DNA of 64,000 bases, from NCBI RefSeq assembly GCF_024700885.2, contig NZ_CP117016.1. One strand, written 5' to 3'. The DNA is from Escherichia coli. Its GTDB lineage: Bacteria > Pseudomonadota > Gammaproteobacteria > Enterobacterales > Enterobacteriaceae. The notes under the pieces were generated by a model. It searched no databases. It was not told where the DNA came from and worked only from the letters and a program-made list of their open reading frames with translations. Positions 18,903 through 64,000 of the stretch are shown here, piece by piece (the stretch's first letter is position 1; every line of letters starts with the position of its first letter). The translations under genes were made by a program, and so were the position numbers.

Positions 18903-19616
18903 TGATGGTGGTGGGGGAAGGATTACTCAGCGCTGCGCGCTTCACCCTTCGGGTCGTTGCCTGCGGCAACGCTTTCTCGCTGGCGCTCGAGTCGCACCTT
19001 GGTCGAAGCTTCTCATCCTTCCCCGCATGGGCAGAATATTTAATTGCGGATTCGTTTGAGAGTTCACGGACTTTTGAAAAGTGATGGTGGTGGGGGAAGG
19101 ATTACTCAGCGCTGCGCGCTTCGCCCTTCGGGTCGTTGCCTGCGGCAACGCTCTCTCGCTGGCGCTCGAGTCGAACCTTGGTCGAAGCTTCTCATCCTTC
19201 CCCGCATGGGCAGAATATTTAATCGCGGATTCGTTTGAGAGTTCACGGACTTTTGAAAGTGATGGTGGTGGGGGAAGGATTACTCAGCGCTGCGCGCTTC
19301 GCCCTTCGGGTCGTTGCCTGCGGCCACGCTCTCTCGTTGGCGCTCGAGTCGAACCTTGGTCGAAGCTTCTCATCCTTCCCCCGCTTGGGCAGAATATTTA
19401 ATTACGGATTCGTTTGAGAGTTCAGGGACTTTTGAAAGTGATGGTGGTGGGGGAAGGATTACTCAGCGCTGCGCGCTTCGCCCTTCGGGTCGTTGCCTGC
19501 GGCCACGCTCTCTCGCTGGCGCTCGAGTCGAACCTTGGTCGAAGCTTCTCATCCTTCCCCGCATGGGCAGAATATTTAATCGCGGATTCGTTTGAGAGTT
19601 CACGGACTTTTGAAAG
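18903..19616. repeat. rtT: Four tandem ~178-bp repeats of the tyrT-operon distal region (rtT/tpr-type), each starting with a copy of the tRNA-Tyr 3' end
   Basis: Units begin at 18903, 19081, 19259 and 19438 (period 178-179 bp, >95% identical); each starts with gtgatggtggtgggggaaggatt, which is the reverse complement of the tRNA-Tyr acceptor/T-arm 3' end. Confidence 0.85.
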
Positions 19617-19619
19617 TGA

Positions 19620-19704
<85 letters not shown>

Positions 19705-19738
19705 AGGGGTAATTCAAATTTTGAGGTAATGCTTGAGA

Positions 19739-19823
<85 letters not shown>

Positions 19824-22442: not shown

Positions 22443-23456
22443 ATGACGCAGCCATTGGTCGGAAAACAGATTCTCATTGTTGAAGATGAGCAGGTATTTC
22501 GCTCGCTTCTGGATTCGTGGTTTTCCTCATTGGGAGCGACAACGGTACTGGCGGCTGATGGGGTGGATGCCCTTGAGTTGCTGGGAGGTTTCACTCCAGA
22601 CCTGATGATATGTGATATCGCGATGCCACGAATGAACGGGCTTAAACTGCTGGAACATATACGCAACAGAGGTGACCAGACACCGGTTCTGGTGATATCT
22701 GCCACTGAAAATATGGCAGATATTGCCAAAGCGTTACGTCTGGGCGTTGAAGATGTTTTGCTGAAACCAGTTAAAGATCTGAATCGCTTGCGCGAGATGG
22801 TTTTTGCCTGTCTCTATCCCAGCATGTTTAATTCCCGCGTTGAGGAAGAGGAAAGGCTTTTTCGCGACTGGGATGCAATGGTTGATAACCCTGCCGCAGC
22901 GGCGAAATTATTACAGGAACTACAACCGCCGGTTCAGCAGGTGATTTCCCATTGCCGGGTTAATTATCGTCAATTGGTTGCCGCGGACAAACCCGGCCTG
23001 GTGCTTGATATTGCCGCACTTTCGGAAAACGATCTGGCATTTTATTGCCTTGATGTCACCCGAGCTGGACATAATGGCGTACTTGCTGCCTTGTTATTAC
23101 GCGCATTGTTTAACGGATTATTACAGGAACAGCTTGCACACCAAAATCAACGGTTGCCAGAGTTGGGCGCGTTATTGAAGCAGGTAAACCATTTACTCCG
23201 TCAGGCCAATCTGCCGGGGCAGTTTCCGCTATTAGTTGGCTATTATCATCGCGAACTGAAAAATCTCATTCTGGTTTCTGCGGGGCTGAATGCGACGTTA
23301 AATACCGGCGAACACCAGGTGCAAATCAGTAATGGTGTTCCGTTAGGCACTTTAGGTAACGCTTATTTGAATCAATTGAGCCAGCGATGCGATGCCTGGC
23401 AATGCCAAATATGGGGAACCGGTGGTCGGCTGCGCTTGATGTTGTCTGCAGAATGA
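22443..23456 (+). CDS. rssB: RpoS-degradation adaptor/response regulator RssB
   Basis: 337-aa ORF with N-terminal receiver domain (ILIVEDEQVFRSLL...); downstream of rssA. Confidence 0.85.
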   Translation: MTQPLVGKQILIVEDEQVFRSLLDSWFSSLGATTVLAADGVDALELLGGFTPDLMICDIAMPRMNGLKLLEHIRNRGDQTPVLVISATENMADIAKALRLGVEDVLLKPVKDLNRLREMVFACLYPSMFNSRVEEEERLFRDWDAMVDNPAAAAKLLQELQPPVQQVISHCRVNYRQLVAADKPGLVLDIAALSENDLAFYCLDVTRAGHNGVLAALLLRALFNGLLQEQLAHQNQRLPELGALLKQVNHLLRQANLPGQFPLLVGYYHRELKNLILVSAGLNATLNTGEHQVQISNGVPLGTLGNAYLNQLSQRCDAWQCQIWGTGGRLRLMLSAE

Positions 23457-44660: not shown

Positions 44661-44705
44661 TTTTCTCTGCAAAACCTCTGCAAAACCCCTCTGCAAAACT
44701 GGTCA

Positions 44706-45836
44706 TCAAATGACCAGTTTTTTCCATTCCTTACCGCGTGCATCGTTATAAATATCGGTCATTTTTTGATTCGAATGGCCTAGCAAAATTTTGGTATCAA
44801 CCCCCTGCTCTCTGAACAATCGCTCTGATAAAGATCTCTGCTCATGGAAAGAGGGTGGGGTGCCATTAGCACGCCAGTTGTAATCCACAGAATCCCGGGC
44901 TTTTTTAAATGCAACGGTTAATGTTGCTGGCTTAACCATCCCGCCGCGCTTAGCTGTCCCTTTCGCGTGATGGTGGTGCAATAGCCACGGACTAAGAACG
45001 CAATCGCGGCAGGATGACACTACATCATCCAGGGTGAGATTTAATTTATCGCAACGCAGAGCCAGAGGGATGGCAATCCGGGTTCCTGTTTTTTGCTGTT
45101 CGACATGAAGATAACCATCCCGGATATCCGAAAATTGCATTTTGCAAATATCTGAAAGGCGCTGGCCTGTCATCAGTGCCAGCAGCATACCGCGCTGTAA
45201 AAAGTAACCATCCTTTTCCGCTGCGTTATAAATCATCATCCACTCATCAAAAGTCAGTCGCTGTCTTGATATCCGCACCTGCGGTTTTTTTGCCGATTCT
45301 GCAGGGTTAAAGCCTGGCGGGACATCGCCCGTTTGCTGAGCTTCCCGGAAAACATCGATCAGTACTTTCCTGAAAATTTGTCCCATTCTGTTATGTCCTC
45401 TGGCCTTGTACTCTTCCAGTACTGATACCACATCTTTTACGGTTATGGCATCTAACGGTCTGGTGCCAAAACGTTCATCAAATACCCTGAGAGGGGCCGC
45501 TTTCTGTTTCAGCGTGTTGAGTTTGATCTCGCCGTTTTCATATCTTTCCTGTTGAATTTTTCTGTAATTATTCAGAAAAATGGTAACGGTTGATGAACCG
45601 CCGGTATCACTAATAATTTTCTCCTGCAGACTGAGCATTTGTTCCATTTGCTGCCGGGCAAGACGGCTGTTCGCTTCTGCTGCAATAGTTTCTGCCAGTT
45701 TCTGGTCAATACTGCCGAGACCGTGATTTTTGCCTGTTATGGGATGCCTGTAACGCCAGTAAACTTTGTTATTTCTTTTGTCAAAATACGGAGATAATCC
45801 CGGAACATCGGTTTTATATTTTCGCGGGCGCGCCAT
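44706..45836 (-). CDS. int: Phage tyrosine integrase
   Basis: 376-aa ORF ending at the ompW-proximal junction; C-terminal LLGHSNQKMTDIY box II with catalytic Tyr; overlaps the upstream xis gene by 23 nt. Confidence 0.9.
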   Translation of the reverse strand: MARPRKYKTDVPGLSPYFDKRNNKVYWRYRHPITGKNHGLGSIDQKLAETIAAEANSRLARQQMEQMLSLQEKIISDTGGSSTVTIFLNNYRKIQQERYENGEIKLNTLKQKAAPLRVFDERFGTRPLDAITVKDVVSVLEEYKARGHNRMGQIFRKVLIDVFREAQQTGDVPPGFNPAESAKKPQVRISRQRLTFDEWMMIYNAAEKDGYFLQRGMLLALMTGQRLSDICKMQFSDIRDGYLHVEQQKTGTRIAIPLALRCDKLNLTLDDVVSSCRDCVLSPWLLHHHHAKGTAKRGGMVKPATLTVAFKKARDSVDYNWRANGTPPSFHEQRSLSERLFREQGVDTKILLGHSNQKMTDIYNDARGKEWKKLVI

Positions 45837-46126: not shown

Positions 46127-48571
46127 TTAAAAATCAGCCTGATTCGGGATCAGTTTTTGCCAGATAACTGAAACGTATTTTGCCTGGTAACGGGCGTCAT
46201 CAAGTGCATTATGGCGCTCACCTTCGAATGGAATAGCCGTTCTGGCATCGAAGTCTATGGCTTTCCCCAGCTCAACGATTGTGCGTACATCTCGATCGTT
46301 GTAGTAACGCCACGGGCAGGGGATCCCCTGCCGTTCGTATGAACGGCGCAAAATCGTGTTGTCGAAGTTGGCTCCATTTCCCCAGACCTGAACAAAAAAT
46401 TCACCGGAGTTTTCGTCGATAAATTCCCGCAATTGTAACAGTGCATCATCTAACGGGATTTCATCGGTCATAATGGCAGATTGCGCTTCGCGTGATTGCT
46501 TAAGCCACCATTTAATGGTGTCCCGATCAATGACCCCGCCAGCAGTTTCCAGATCGATAGTCTTACTAAATTCCGGTCCCATATCTCCGGTTTGCGGATC
46601 GAAAAATATTGCACCTATTGAGATGATCGGGGCATCAGGATTTTTTCCCATGGTTTCAAGGTCGATCATTAGATGGTCACACGTCCTGCTGGTGGATGTG
46701 ATAATGTAATGATCGTTCACCGTAATTAAGGGATCTGCCGTCTCGCCAGTTTCACTATCGCTGGCGTGATCCTGAGCGCTGCCAGCATTCTCCTTGTGTG
46801 GATGTTCAGCGCCTTCCATTTCCTTCGGATCATTTTCCTGAACTTCAACCTGATTCTCTTCATCGAATGTTTCCTGGTATGTTGCGTCGCCCATCACCGC
46901 GCCACAATCAGGGCAGTTACCGCCGCCGGTCTGACCGCAGGCGGTGCAGACTTTTTCCACTTCCTGTTGCGCCACTGGTTCAGGCTGTTTCGTTTCTGGC
47001 TCGTTTTGTTGCGTATTTGGGCTGTTTTGTTCCGCTTTCTGGTCGTTCTGTTCCGATTCTTGCTGGTTCTGGTTTACAGAATCGCGGGTTTCAATCCCCT
47101 TTACCCATTTCGGATCATTCGGGTCGCTAATCCCTGCAACAAATTCTCCGCGAGAGGCAGCCAGTAATTTGTCTGCATCGACAGGATTTTTGGGCGGAAT
47201 GTTTTTCCGGGCTTCATAGAGTTCTGCCCGCAGTTTCTGATATTTCGCATCAACAGAATTTACCTGTGACTGAGCATCCAGCGGCTGCGTGTCCTGATGA
47301 TGTTCAGTTGCATCCGGTTCCACTGTTTCAGCCGTTGCCTGTTCATCTGCCATTGCGCAAGATGGTTGCAGTTTTTCTTCATCATCCTGTTTTTCTTCTT
47401 CTGTTACACGCTGCGGCATCGGGGCAGAGGAACGACCGCAGGCAATATCCACGATTTCTGGATCAGGGTTGGCATGATCAGTTTCAGTCAGTACTTTGTT
47501 AAGATATTCAGTGACGTGTGCGGGGATAACCTCGATCCCAATTGGTGCTTCTTTTACGGACGCAACCACGATGGCGCGGGAATAATCCAGCCCGCCAGGC
47601 ATGGTGATGAATTTGTCGCGGAAAACAGAAAAGGGCGGTTTATTTTCAGCGATAATTTCCTCGACACGTTTAGCGTGTGCCGGATGAAGGTTATAAATGT
47701 CCACGTCCATTGAACGAGCCAGTACGCCAGTGGCTACGTCGCGCGCCAGTGACGTCAGATCGTGAACGAAACCTTCGCCGCGATCGGTGAGGTTCCCGCC
47801 GCCAGCATTAGCGCCGGAAGCCGTGCGCGTGATGCGTGAAACACGATTTCCTTTCATCCACTCTTTTGTCAGCAGACCGCGATCGGTGTAGTCTGCGTCC
47901 AGGTATGCTTCGAAAAAAGCAGTCATCAGCCCCAGGCTTGAATTGCCTGGATTAGGGAAAACTCTGTCAGTATCACGCACCAGTTTGTGGAGATCGCGAA
48001 TTTCCAGCGGGTCGAGCAGGCTGGTTTTGTGGGAAACAGCCAGGGCAGTAACAGCTGGTAGTTCTTCAGCTCGTGCAATGTGTAATGCCTGTAGTTCGTT
48101 GCGTGAAACGTGCGTTACCGGTTTTTCGCTGCCGTGTTGAGCAAGCCAGCGAATGGGCAGCTCCTGACCGGAAATCGGGAGTAGCATATTCTCCTCAATC
48201 TCCGTCATGTCTTCGCCATTAACATTGGTATTGTCAGTGCTGGCTGGCTTGTCCTGCGCAGAGGATGAGGGCGCGATAAATACCATTGTGATGCCATCTT
48301 CCCCGCCTTTTTCGTAACGGTTGCAGAATTCCGTATCAAATACGCCTTCTGGTGGAAGGTCATCAACAACGGGCAAATTGACGCGAACAGGTTTTTTAAA
48401 GTCATCTTCATCGTAGCCAGCATCGTCAATCGCAACAGCACCACGATAGATGGCAATGGATAATTTTTTCGCTTCAGCCCAGTAGAAACCGCCTTTAATA
48501 CCGAGACGTTTTCTTACTTTGTCATTTTTTGCTTCGTAATACAGTGGGTAAACTTGTTTATCGGTGCTCAT
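46127..48571 (-). CDS. Large early-region protein (814 aa) with C-terminal DEDDh (DnaQ-like) 3'-5' exonuclease domain
   Basis: C-terminal ~180 aa carry Exo I (MIDLETMG), Exo II ([12 protein letters not shown]) and Exo III (HNALDDARY) motifs; the central segment is highly acidic/low-complexity with a CxxC...CxxC zinc ribbon ([16 protein letters not shown]). Confidence 0.6.
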
Positions 48572-48670
48572 TGCTTTTTAACCTCAACTCAGATTAAAAT
48601 TAATGCGAGTGATGAATAAATGTCCCAGGTTCTTCACTCAGGCCTGCACAGTGTGCAGGCTTTCTTTTTT

Positions 48671-48946
48671 TCAGATTTCACCTTTTAATTTCATTGCAAT
48701 CAGAGTTGCCAGAAATTCGGCTTTTTTTTCTGCGGGCAGATTCTTTCCTATGTGCACCAGACACATTTTTTTAACACCATCGTTAAGTGTTTTAACGTTG
48801 CCTGTTGAACTGTCGATATCAACCACAGTGAATGGGGTTTCTTTATTTTCTGTTTTAATCACGTAGCCAATACGTTTTCCCTCCAGGATAACTTCGAGCA
48901 CAATGCCATCAGTAGTAACAATGGTGGCTTCATAACTGTTAATCAT
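48671..48946 (-). CDS. Hypothetical phage protein (91 aa)
   Basis: ATG at 48946 preceded by AAGGAG at 6-nt spacing (MINSYEATIVTTDGIVLEVILEGKRIGYV...); the 16-codon upstream extension in the track is rejected. Confidence 0.5.
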   Translation of the reverse strand: MINSYEATIVTTDGIVLEVILEGKRIGYVIKTENKETPFTVVDIDSSTGNVKTLNDGVKKMCLVHIGKNLPAEKKAEFLATLIAMKLKGEI

Positions 48947-49318: not shown

Positions 49319-49873
49319 TTATTTTAAGGAAAGCAACTGCTCTACGGTCATATTTTTAATTGCGCTCCGGTTTACAAGAGTCCAGCCTTGTTGCTCCAGA
49401 TAAAACAGGAAGGTATCCAGGGTGCAGACCATTGCGCCGTCAGGAACGGTTTCAGTGAATTTGATATTGCCGTGTTCGTCGAGACGGATAACCAGGGTGC
49501 GTCCGTCCCCGTGAATCATTTTGTCGGGAGACGGGGCGTTATTCTGGCGCAGTTCAGCTTCCATGCGGTCGAACTCAGCAATGTATGCCTCTTTAAATGC
49601 AGCGGCTTTTTTGCCAGTGAAGCCCATCACCAGGAAAACGAAGCCGTTTTTGGTGATTTGGTACATTGGGAGTTTGCGCCCGGTTGAGTCGGTGTATTCG
49701 CTCGACACAAAATTGTGCTCAGTGAATTTTGCTGAACAGTCCAGATTGCGAATTTTATCCAACACTCGTTCGTGGCGTTTGCCAAAGAACTCGGCGATCG
49801 CAACAGACGTAGTGACAGCGCGACCATTTTCGATGGTTACGTCAGGGTGAGAAAGGGTAAGGATAGTAGCCAT
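49319..49873 (-). CDS. Rha-family phage regulatory protein (184 aa)
   Basis: ATG at 49873 preceded by GGAGG; N-terminal motif VTTSVAIAEFFGKRHERVLDKIRNL and downstream PMYQITKNGFVFLVMGFTGKKAAAFKEAYIAEFDRME match the pRha pattern. The 100-codon upstream extension of the track ORF reads through a terminator hairpin and is rejected. Confidence 0.65.
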   Translation of the reverse strand: MATILTLSHPDVTIENGRAVTTSVAIAEFFGKRHERVLDKIRNLDCSAKFTEHNFVSSEYTDSTGRKLPMYQITKNGFVFLVMGFTGKKAAAFKEAYIAEFDRMEAELRQNNAPSPDKMIHGDGRTLVIRLDEHGNIKFTETVPDGAMVCTLDTFLFYLEQQGWTLVNRSAIKNMTVEQLLSLK

Positions 49874-50042
49874 GATGGCAGCCTCCGCGATGAATTTGAT
49901 TAACTCACCACCGAGGTTTTCCACGACCATAAGGGTGGTGAGACGTACAGGGGTGGAAATACCGGTCATCACGGAACCCGGCCAGCCTTGCGGCTGCCCT
50001 GCACGCCCCACCATAATGCGAATGTGGCTGTGCTTAACGCAT

Positions 50043-50064
50043 AAAAAAACCGCCTGAGCGCGGT
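50043..50064 (-). terminator. Rho-independent terminator downstream of the DicF-like sRNA
   Basis: On the minus strand, aaccgcgctcaggcggtt hairpin followed by TTTTTTT. Confidence 0.55.
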
Positions 50065-50352
50065 TATGCGCCGTGAATGATTTCGGGTTTCCACGCCCGG
50101 CACCCGTTTTATGAGGTGCAGGTGCACTATAATTCCACCCGTTCTGGTTTTCAATAGCTACATTCAACATTTTCTCTACCTTTCATCACCGAAGTGAACT
50201 TTGTTGATGCGGTGCCTGGTGCCTCCAGGTGATGTTAACCAGTTAACAATTAACGCCGGATACAGAGAATCCACCCATAACACTGTTTTTGGTTTTAACT
50301 GTTCCGCGTGCGCTGAGCCGCATTCACCGCATCACAAAATTCACTTTAAAAA

Positions 50353-50405
50353 GGGCGGCAGAGCAGTCACGGAGTAAAACTGATACCGCCAAAAGTCACC
50401 AGAAA
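50353..50405 (-). ncRNA. dicF: DicF-like sRNA (cell-division inhibitor sRNA of Qin-type prophages)
   Basis: Minus-strand 53 nt TTTCTGGTGACTTTTGGCGGTATCAGTTTTACTCCGTGACTGCTCTGCCGCCC differs at one position from the K-12 DicF sequence as I recall it; followed by a T-run. Confidence 0.65.
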
Positions 50406-50737: not shown

Positions 50738-51016
50738 ATGGATAAAAAGCAAATTGAGGCCCTGCAATCTATTATTGAAAAACAAGATGAAGCTATCAGG
50801 ATTCTTTCATATCGCACTGATATGATACTAAATATGCTTTCTGCATTAACGGCTGCGCTTGGTGGTACAAAAACAAACGTATACCGCGAAGTTGTTATTC
50901 AACAGATAGATAAATTTGAAAAAACCATACCAGGTATTAATGCTCATCTTGCAGAACAAGAGAAAGACCATGCTCTTATGGCAATTTCTTCAGTAGCTCT
51001 CCCGAAAGTTGAGTAG
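50738..51016 (+). CDS. Hypothetical AT-rich cargo protein (92 aa), convergent to the neighbouring minus-strand operon
   Basis: ATG at 50738 preceded by AGGAGG at 6-nt spacing (MDKKQIEALQSIIEKQDEAIRILSYRTDMILNMLSALTAALGG...); local GC is clearly below the flanks; 3' end overlaps the convergent 137-aa gene by 41 nt. Confidence 0.5.
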   Translation: MDKKQIEALQSIIEKQDEAIRILSYRTDMILNMLSALTAALGGTKTNVYREVVIQQIDKFEKTIPGINAHLAEQEKDHALMAISSVALPKVE

Positions 51017-58012: not shown

Positions 58013-58223
58013 TTTCATATTGGCGAGGTGACGGGAGTTAAGTAGAATGGCTGCGGGTGCTTGAGGCTATCTGTCTCAGGCATGAACACCAAAGGCAGAT
58101 AGAGAAAAGCCCCAGTTAACATTACGCGTCCTGCAAGACGCTTAACATTAATCTGAGGCCATATCTATGCTCTACACACGTAGGTTAGCCTCTTACGTGC
58201 CGAAAGGCAAGGAGAAGCAGGCT

Positions 58224-58379
58224 ATGAAGCAGCAAAAGGCGATGCTAATCGCCCTGATCGTCATCTGTTTAACCGTCATGGTGACGGCACTGGTAACGAG
58301 GAAAGACCTCTGCGAGGTACGAATCCGAACCGGCCAGACGGAGGTCGCTGTCTTCACAGCTTACGAACCTGAGGAGTAA
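58224..58379 (+). CDS. hok: Hok/Gef-family type I toxin (51 aa), near-identical to HokD/RelF
   Basis: MKQQKAMLIALIVICLTVMVTALVTRKDLCEVRIRTGQTEVAVFTAYEPEE; the in-frame upstream extension in the track (from 58167) is not the toxin start. Confidence 0.85.
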   Translation: MKQQKAMLIALIVICLTVMVTALVTRKDLCEVRIRTGQTEVAVFTAYEPEE

Positions 58380-62757: not shown

Positions 62758-62833
62758 GGCCCTTTAGCTCAGTGGTGAGAGCGAGCGACTCATAATCGCC
62801 AGGTCGCTGGTTCAAATCCAGCAAGGGCCACCA
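62758..62833 (+). tRNA. Prophage tRNA with CAU anticodon (Ile2/lysidine-type, ileZ-like; Met not excluded)
   Basis: 76 nt folding into a cloverleaf by hand: acceptor GGCCCTT/AAGGGCC, D-stem GCTC/GAGC, anticodon loop CTCATAA, T-arm GCTGG-TTCAAAT-CCAGC, 3' ACCA. Confidence 0.8.
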
Positions 62834-62933
62834 TCACAAACCGCCATTAGCTTATCAGGAAGAGCAGACGACACGATAACAGGGTTGTTGGTGCGGGGGC
62901 GGGTCCCCGATGGCGGTCCATTATCGGTATTCA

Positions 62934-63010
62934 GCGTTGTTAGCTCAGCCGGACAGAGCAATTGCCTTCTAAGCAATCGGTCACTGGTTCGAATCCAGTA
63001 CAGCGCGCCA
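62934..63010 (+). tRNA. Prophage tRNA-Arg (UCU)
   Basis: 77 nt: acceptor GCGTTGT/ACAGCGC, D-arm TAGCTCAGCCGGACAGAGCA, anticodon loop CTTCTAA, T-arm ACTGG-TTCGAAT-CCAGT, 3' GCCA; related to argU-type tRNAs. Confidence 0.8.
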
Positions 63011-63117
63011 TATTCATTCTTCCAGATTCCTTTCGGCAGAGCCTTATACTGAAATATACCTGGCTCAGGATATTGTTGAAAATATTATATGTTTGTCAAA
63101 AATAAAAGTTCTGTTAA

Positions 63118-63474
63118 GTGTTGATTGAGTGTTTGTTATACGGTCTAATGGTTTTTTCAGCATTAAATATTTATCATTCATATGGTGTGGGTAGAGTGAA
63201 TATTGATGAGGCGTCGGGGTGTTTCATCCTTAGGCAGCGTATTGATATAGTCAATGCAGAACGAGCAAAGGCCTTCAGCCGTTTGACAGTTTTGTTCTGT
63301 ACTCCTGATCGTCTTTCGGGAAGAGACGTTATTATTCTGAATAGTGATGCTATACAGAGGGTTTGCGATGAGTTCATGGTGGCTAATTCAGAATTATTTG
63401 CTCTTGTTCAGGAGTACAACAGAATAGCCAGGACCTGTGGTATGGATGAACTTCGGATTACTCATCTGGGGTAG
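63118..63474 (+). CDS. Hypothetical AT-rich cargo ORF (118 aa) in the post-tRNA slot
   Basis: ORF directly downstream of the tRNA pair; low GC; no recognisable motif (MLIECLLYGLMVFSALNIYHSYGVGRVNIDEASGCFILRQRIDIVNAERAK...). Start uncertain (alternative Met at 63148). Confidence 0.4.
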   Translation: MLIECLLYGLMVFSALNIYHSYGVGRVNIDEASGCFILRQRIDIVNAERAKAFSRLTVLFCTPDRLSGRDVIILNSDAIQRVCDEFMVANSELFALVQEYNRIARTCGMDELRITHLG

Positions 63475-64000
63475 ATACATATCTGGATTATCACCGGTTA
63501 CGGTAAAAAGTGATTGCTTACTGTTTTTGTGAATGGCATTGCAGCAGCCGGATAATGTCAGTGCTGGCTGACGGTGTGCTGGTGGCGGGTGTGGTGGTTG
63601 CTGCTTTCCCGTTGCTGAAAAAGAAAACGCCAGACTGTTAGCCGGGTATCAGTTAGCGGGAGAAATTTTTAAATACTTCACAATTCAGGCGGTTGACTGT
63701 TGTCTGGTTTGCGGGGAGTTTGTTAAAAGAAACTGGCATGGTGAATCCCCCTGTGCGGAGGGGCAATCAGCGAGTAGGTATATGGGATAATCGCGGATTC
63801 AGGTGCTGGTACTGAATTCACCGGGAGGCACCCGGCACCATGCAATGGCACATAGCGCCACTCTCCAGCCCCTCTCCGGAGGGGCTGTTTATATTGATTT
63901 TGTCAGATGTGAGTAAACTCCTTATGGACTTTGTTGTTTTAGCCCATAAGGACATATTTGCAGAGTGCAACGGTTATTAAAGCATTCATTCAATACGTTA

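Follow-up and report, generated by a model that had tools for sequence, protein, structure and literature searches.

A conserved plus-strand terminator in the racC-exonuclease spacer of a Rac-like Escherichia coli prophage probably ends a short antisense RNA

The window, by which we mean the whole stretch of 64,000 nucleotides analysed here, is a piece of the E. coli chromosome with a Rac-like lambdoid prophage integrated beside ompW. Gene annotation was taken from strain MLI114, which is 100% identical to the window. The hairpin that is the subject of this work sits within a spacer of 99 nt that is flanked by a racC-like gene and a RecE-type exonuclease gene, both read from the minus strand. 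The two genes and the elements of the hairpin are as follows.

48671 to 48946, minus strand: racC-like gene, 91 aa from the PGAP start, in an open reading frame that extends to 48994
46127 to 48571, minus strand: RecE-type exonuclease gene, 814 aa, its leader complementary to the antisense RNA predicted below
48640 to 48662, plus strand: terminator stem-loop, identified by its core palindrome, folding, the terminator scan and covariation
48661 to 48671, plus strand: T-tract TTTCTTTTTTT, directly 3' of the core stem

The minus-strand neighbours of the hairpin are integrase, excisionase, exonuclease, racC-like, YdaE-family and Rha-family genes. The first-pass annotation of this DNA had placed every gene within 2.5 kb on the minus strand, which nearly holds: the nearest plus-strand CDS, at about 50738-51016, starts 2.07 kb rightward of the hairpin and points away from it. 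The exonuclease is a hybrid, joining a RecE N-terminal domain (PF06630, aa 53-189) to a Rv2179c-like DEDD 3'-5' exonuclease domain (PF16473, aa 633-804), and no recT gene comes after it, the excisionase and integrase genes following directly.

To the left lies the plus-strand host gene ompW, which owns a terminator at 44696-44725, and for this reason read-through from ompW was rejected as the transcript that the spacer hairpin would stop. The palindrome concerned, AAAACTGGTCAT-CAA-ATGACCAGTTTTTT, has an A-run and a T-run on its flanks, stands directly after ompW and shares bases with the integrase stop codon of the prophage; by its appearance, ompW and the prophage end use it in common as a bidirectional terminator.

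Other RNA genes are found elsewhere in the window. Rfam matches above the gathering score place a C4 antisense RNA at 49931-50018 and IsrK at 50043-50119, both on the minus strand and both inside the Rha/Ash-family CDS at 49319-50170. This CDS has a Pfam Ash-domain match of its own over the C4/IsrK stretch, and either the annotated start lies too far upstream or the stretch carries RNA and protein signals at once. DicF (50353-50404, minus strand) is located just upstream of the same CDS, beside a DicB pseudogene. Further RNA genes fall in four intervals (2173-2774, 18906-19823, 58055-58229 and 62758-63896) and comprise two rdlD antitoxin RNAs and four RtT repeats with tRNAs, and also a sok antitoxin in the prophage right arm, two tRNAs and STnc100.

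The spacer hairpin is built around a core palindrome, GCCTGCAC-AGT-GTGCAGGC, at 48642-48660, with 8 bp and the loop AGT. On the plus strand the stem is extended to 10 pairs, six of them G-C, by A48640-U48662 and G48641.U48661, closing on a loop of 3 nt. Ten of the 11 bases of the T-tract (48661-48671) are T, and the final T doubles as the first position of the stop codon (TCA, 48671-48673) of the racC-like gene. The sequence is thus as the first-pass annotation had described it, a hairpin with a T-tract on the plus strand, and has the form of an intrinsic terminator, in which a GC-rich stem-loop is followed immediately by a U-rich tract. The plus-strand hairpin folds at -16.0 kcal/mol, with a z-score of -4.3 and none of 200 shuffles folding equally well, and the minus-strand hairpin at -14.2 kcal/mol. 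The latter has 8 pairs and continues into CUGAGUGAAG, without a U-tract; the homologous K-12 hairpin, of 11 bp and with a minus-strand fold of -18.4 kcal/mol, likewise has a minus-strand tail, AUGAACAGUG, without one. A bidirectional terminator carries a U-tract 3' of the stem on both strands, and since the minus-strand RNA here has none, canonical termination is predicted in one direction only.

It also should be considered how often such a structure would arise by chance. The hairpin was the top match in a consensus terminator scan of 44-54 kb. A stricter scan, run on both strands of the 64-kb window and calling a hairpin of -12 kcal/mol or lower that abuts at least 9 T in 11 bases, returned 5 sites in the whole window as against a mean of 0.3 in 30 dinucleotide shuffles. 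The palindrome is single-copy in the window, where chance would be expected to supply none. This rarity under the strict scan, together with the uniqueness of the palindrome, marks the hairpin as a real feature, and the earlier suggestion that it could be an artefact of sequence context was rejected. A protein-coding reading of the plus strand was rejected as well, as the 87-aa open reading frame concerned (48603-48866) crosses the terminator and its frame is broken in K-12 by a 4-nt indel and by divergence.

Of 5426 complete E. coli genomes, 1785 carry the spacer. It occurs in two main types, that of the window and that of the K-12 Rac prophage, which are 76% identical. For comparison we used 133 copies, representing 37 distinct 150-nt variants, drawn from the window, E. 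coli genome loci and IMG/VR prophage contigs. Across this set a 47-nt block that holds the exonuclease start codon, its Shine-Dalgarno sequence and the motif GATTAAAATT is near-invariant. The ~40 nt beyond the block diverge strongly between the spacer types, and the terminator stem is kept, with a T-rich tail 3' of the stem in 37 of 37 variants. Within the phage collection the spacer is restricted to Rac-like phages and has the same genes around it. When 100,044 species genomes were scanned with racC, only 3 loci were recovered, all of them E. coli-like, which puts covariation across species out of reach. A phage labelled 'Actinobacillus phage vB_Apl-pPE4' (PP818812.1; H1/H96) carries a spacer 96% identical to that of E. 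coli, and racC was also found in metagenome bins (L131, L133) labelled Candidatus Nanosynbacter and 'Proteobacteria bacterium'; these labels probably reflect mislabelled hosts or contamination.

Comparison of the two spacer types reveals swaps within the stem from A-U to G-C and from A-U to U-A. Read on the plus strand, all 188 pair cells of the alignment hold standard pairs, a result that not one column shuffle in 500 equalled; with the 3' partner shifted 1-3 columns along, only 19-45% of the pairs are standard. Thirteen of the 188 cells are G.U or U.G, of which 10 lie at the stem base in the window type, two in variants L010 and L045, and one in variant L101. By complementarity these 13 cells would all be C.A mismatches on the minus strand, where 93% of cells would then be paired, about the shuffled mean. 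Changes of C to T in one arm, which break the symmetry of the DNA and keep G.U pairing, were found in three lineages. At the level of the alignment, then, the stem is maintained by compensatory changes and G.U pairs that suit the plus strand alone, on the strength of a few independent events, essentially two clades and a few singletons.

The terminator loop is free to vary in sequence and length, with at least 11 versions. As a separate observation, the loop (48650-48652 in the window, and its counterparts in homologues L006, L047, L128 and L010) is a hot-spot of variation, and some of its variants are exact reverse complements of one another, CAGTG and CACTG in the window type and CCATA and TATGG in the K-12 type. 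Such pairs are inversions of the loop within a perfect palindrome, the product that template switching in replication would be expected to give.

That an RNA ends at this structure in vivo can be seen in the K-12 homologue. The K-12 Term-seq data of Adams et al. (2021, eLife, PMC7815308, supplementary file 1) contain a plus-strand 3' end at NC_000913.3:1417486. It is classed solely as antisense to racC and is given in three entries, in a file that spans three growth conditions, with scores of 185,664 and 146,140 (PMC7815308). The score scales in this table differ by strand, with minima of ~780 for the plus strand and ~26,000 for the minus strand, so that scores can be compared within one strand only; of the 42 plus-strand entries in the same part of the file, the valV tRNA alone outscores 1417486, and the next highest stands at 23,167. 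When the published 61-mer is mapped to K-12 the 3' end falls at ...CGCAGGCUAUUUCU (also written ...GCAGGCUAUUUCU), in the homologous T-tract, 4-6 nt past the homologous stem and 2 nt before the racC stop codon. The site is not among the Rho termination regions tabulated by Adams et al. (PMC7815308). The first-pass annotation had staked its reading on plus-strand 3' ends mapping to the tract, and in the K-12 homologue a strong one does. By homology, the RNA 3' end in the window is predicted at ~48666-48670.

An independent dataset, the Hfq CRAC experiment of Tree et al. in O157:H7 Sakai (2014, Mol Cell, PMC4104026, Table S1B), lists the "recC...racC" spacer (int_1895) as intergenic and at rank 64. 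Its reads were 2017, 247, 1374, 5561 and 0, all in one strand column, with the other column at zero (PMC4104026). The companions of int_1895 in its column, fnrS, chiX (micM), gadY, SdhX (sucD 3' UTR), lpxC and mutL-miaA, are all plus-strand, and omrA, omrB, csrA, uhpT, infC-thrS and rttR, in the opposite column, are all minus-strand. In Sakai recE and racC lie on the minus strand, and with respect to dbpA and ttcA they are oriented as in K-12. Taken together, the plus-strand column and the minus-strand genes make the Hfq-bound RNA antisense to the operon. Plus-strand reads were obtained for the Sakai homologue in four of five CRAC samples and are reported for the 101-nt spacer of the homologues, which fits a short RNA and is no proof of one. 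The supplementary tables of Bar et al. (2021), which derive from Hfq RIL-seq, hold no entry containing racC or recE, and the EcOnc list of Tree et al. (2014) holds none at Sakai coordinates 19269xx-19270xx. Both lines of experimental support concern K-12-type spacers, those of K-12 and O157 Sakai, and are carried over to the window across the 76% identity given above.

For the RNA itself we sought a promoter and further structure in the spacer, and these predictions, together with a hairpin of the opposing mRNA, are listed here.

48571 to 48600, plus strand: predicted sigma-70-like promoter TTGCTT-18-TAAAAT, the best weight-matrix site within 350 nt upstream
48606 to 48669, plus strand: predicted antisense RNA of ~60-65 nt, its 3' end placed by homology and its 5' end predicted
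48607 to 48639, plus strand: second predicted hairpin, GAGTGA...TCACTC, from folding, immediately upstream of the terminator
48576 to 48601, minus strand: hairpin AAUUUUAAUC..GAGGUUAAAA of the exonuclease mRNA leader, a minus-strand fold predicted to sequester the Shine-Dalgarno GAGG

Promoters were scored with a simple sigma-70-like weight matrix whose base frequencies were chosen by hand. In both spacer types one and the same invariant element scored highest, its K-12 form being TTGTTT-18-TAAAAT. It overlaps the exonuclease start codon and Shine-Dalgarno sequence within the near-invariant 47-nt block, and would place the RNA start inside the spacer, downstream of the exonuclease start codon; the first-pass annotation had suggested an antisense transcript reaching over the exonuclease 5' end. 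Sites that score equally well number 23 per strand per 64 kb, or about one per 2.8 kb, and the predicted promoter has a poor -35 (3 of 6 matches) and an 18-nt spacer, which sits awkwardly with an abundant RNA. Conservation of the block could stem entirely from the exonuclease ribosome-binding site and its sequestering hairpin; the leader hairpin at 48576-48601 is invariant in 133 of 133 homologues, and the coding sequence just downstream is mosaic. SMRT-Cappable-seq showed nothing at K-12 14172xx-14174xx.

The K-12-type spacer forms a different upstream hairpin (CAGTG...CACTG) at about the same place as the second hairpin of the window. As the hairpins of the two types fall in different, shifted alignment columns they are not strictly homologous and were not counted as covariation, and a compensatory change proposed for this upstream hairpin was accordingly downgraded. 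A scan for trans-encoded targets by RNA duplex energies yielded only diffuse, uninterpretable long pairings.

Conservation of the stem and tail, covariation that fits the plus strand, the K-12 Term-seq end and the Sakai Hfq CRAC reads, the last two from homologues, all support the proposal of the first-pass annotation that the hairpin terminates an antisense transcript. We hold with considerable confidence that it is a functional plus-strand intrinsic terminator. That the product is a discrete small RNA mostly confined to the spacer is a view towards which we lean, and a regulatory role for this RNA is a tentative one, at somewhat below even odds. For the reading as a whole, in which the hairpin is the terminator of a short antisense RNA (~60-65 nt) acting on the racC-exonuclease mRNA, we would put the probability at roughly 0.62.

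How such an RNA might work can be sketched as follows. The window strain would make the same antisense RNA as its homologues, starting at ~48606 from the invariant TTGCTT-18-TAAAAT and yielding a two-hairpin product of ~60-65 nt. Its promoter would coincide with the exonuclease ribosome-binding site, and transcription from it would run head-on into that of the early-left operon. The RNA would act in cis on the racC-exonuclease mRNA, pairing perfectly with the exonuclease leader in a duplex of ~60 bp. A duplex of this length would be a suitable RNase III substrate, and its formation could lead to cleavage or to uncoupling of the two cistrons. The outcome might be that exonuclease is limited in lysogens, or that it is uncoupled from racC and the RacC:exonuclease ratio is set. 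A more elaborate version, which we regard as speculative and distinctly unlikely, holds that the RNA at the racC-recE junction sets the exonuclease:RacC ratio and that the diverse body and loop between the invariant promoter block and the stem could give co-resident Rac-like prophages antisense/target pairs that do not cross-react, like plasmid incompatibility RNAs.

Among the alternatives, the simplest accepts a working terminator and takes the RNA for noise from spurious promoters of the AT-rich prophage DNA, the function of the hairpin then being to keep antisense polymerase out of racC, kil and the immunity region. The region upstream has no strong consensus promoter, the Bar et al. (2021) tables give no RIL-seq partners, and many antisense 3' ends were reported by Adams et al. 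(2021, PMC7815308), all of which would be expected of an insulator. However, the 3' end score is very high relative to other plus-strand entries, Hfq crosslinking was reproducible in four of five samples, and both an invariant upstream block and a second hairpin are kept in the two spacer types. We consider an insulator alone to be rather unlikely.

It might also be that the hairpin serves the minus-strand mRNA, as a stabiliser of the racC 3' end or a barrier to exonucleases, or as a means of setting different cistron levels, with the plus-strand T-tract incidental. The hairpin begins 11 nt past the racC stop codon and its minus-strand fold is appreciable (-14.2 kcal/mol here, -18.4 kcal/mol in K-12); stable stem-loops without U-tracts can protect 3' ends (Dar and Sorek, 2018); and in two variants pairing is better on the minus strand, at the loop-closing pair in L046 and within the upstream hairpin in L004. 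Against this, the 13 G.U cells turn into C.A mismatches and bring minus-strand pairing down to the level of the shuffled controls, variant L010 reaches -22.7 kcal/mol as plus-strand RNA and only -13.3 kcal/mol as minus-strand RNA, no variant has lost the T-tract, and the plus-strand 3' end was measured exactly there in K-12. As the sole explanation an mRNA element is quite improbable, although stabilisation of the racC mRNA 3' end could coexist with antisense termination as a second role.

The helices cut by RNase III usually span about two turns. The first-pass annotation had offered, as a further option, that the hairpin itself forms a site for RNase III or other processing in the minus-strand polycistronic RNA, and its intercistronic position would suit such a site; the minus-strand stem, however, has only 8 bp here and 11 bp in K-12, short of ~20 bp of double-stranded RNA, and no conserved internal-loop features are present, which makes this very improbable. 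The antisense:mRNA duplex could still form an RNase III site. Equally remote is a DNA-level site, for a dimeric protein or a cruciform, or a chance feature: symmetric changes in both arms would also keep a protein-binding palindrome and the loop inversions show that the DNA hairpin forms when the DNA is replicated, but one-arm C-to-T changes break the symmetry and keep G.U pairs in three lineages, the loop varies freely in sequence and length, the adjacent T-tract and the measured RNA 3' end would be left unexplained, and chance predicts 0.3 sites per window.

To return to the antisense RNA that we favour, its setting lends it some interest. recE is famously silent in lysogens until sbcA mutations activate it. 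racC has been reported as a blocker, and recE as a trigger, of retron defence (bioRxiv 10.1101/2020.06.22.160242). If the RNA regulates the junction between the two genes, prophage recombination and counter-defence would gain a level of post-transcriptional control, and the RNA would offer a simple, testable model of antisense RNA action in a cryptic prophage; if it proves to be an insulator only, it would still be a clean case of a conserved terminator lying antisense within an operon. To our knowledge E. coli K-12 is the genome most thoroughly mined for small RNAs. Here a K-12 plus-strand RNA outscores all non-tRNA plus-strand entries in its part of the Term-seq table, yet has no gene name, and about one in three complete E. 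coli genomes has its spacer. Neither NC_000913.3, which does list ralA and kilS nearby, nor MLI114 has an annotated ncRNA in the spacer. Rfam returned no family at the gathering threshold for the spacer, the best match being OmrA-B at 21 bits against a threshold of 40 (E = 0.09), and a literature search found no paper that links racC, recE and a small or antisense RNA and none that names the RNA. The antisense RNA of the racC-exonuclease spacer is, so far, unnamed and unannotated.

Several known systems bear comparison with the spacer hairpin and its RNA. Bidirectional intrinsic terminators are likewise GC-rich palindromes that separate transcription units and are flanked by an A-run and, opposite it, a T-run; the spacer hairpin differs in that its minus-strand RNA has no U-tract after the stem. 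OOP of phage lambda and sar of P22 are short, constitutive cis-antisense RNAs that run convergently with an early operon, end at a strong terminator, are fully complementary to an mRNA junction and form a duplex that RNase III can cleave. The architecture proposed for the spacer RNA is the same; in position the two differ from it, OOP lying at the 3' end of cII and sar at the ant ribosome-binding site, and neither has sequence similarity to the spacer RNA.

The EcOnc sRNAs of EHEC, such as AgvB and AsxR (Tree et al., 2014), come from the same Hfq CRAC experiment and, like the spacer RNA, are prophage-borne and combine a conserved 3' terminator with a variable 5' body. The spacer RNA is not on the EcOnc list, occupies another position in the prophage and has reads 100-1000 times below those of the top sRNAs. 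RalA, of the type I toxin-antitoxin pair RalR/RalA of Rac (K-12 1413556-1413734), is likewise a plus-strand sRNA within the all-minus early-left region, and resembles the spacer RNA in being made in the uninduced lysogen. RalA has been reported to associate with Hfq (PMC4041452). It differs in that it overlaps rcbA and pairs with ralR through 16 nt, and it has no sequence relation to the spacer RNA, which lies at the racC-recE spacer, has no toxin partner and is unannotated. By analogy with these cases, the spacer RNA may be placed among the cis-antisense phage RNAs that end at an intrinsic terminator, as a candidate comparable to OOP, sar and RalA.
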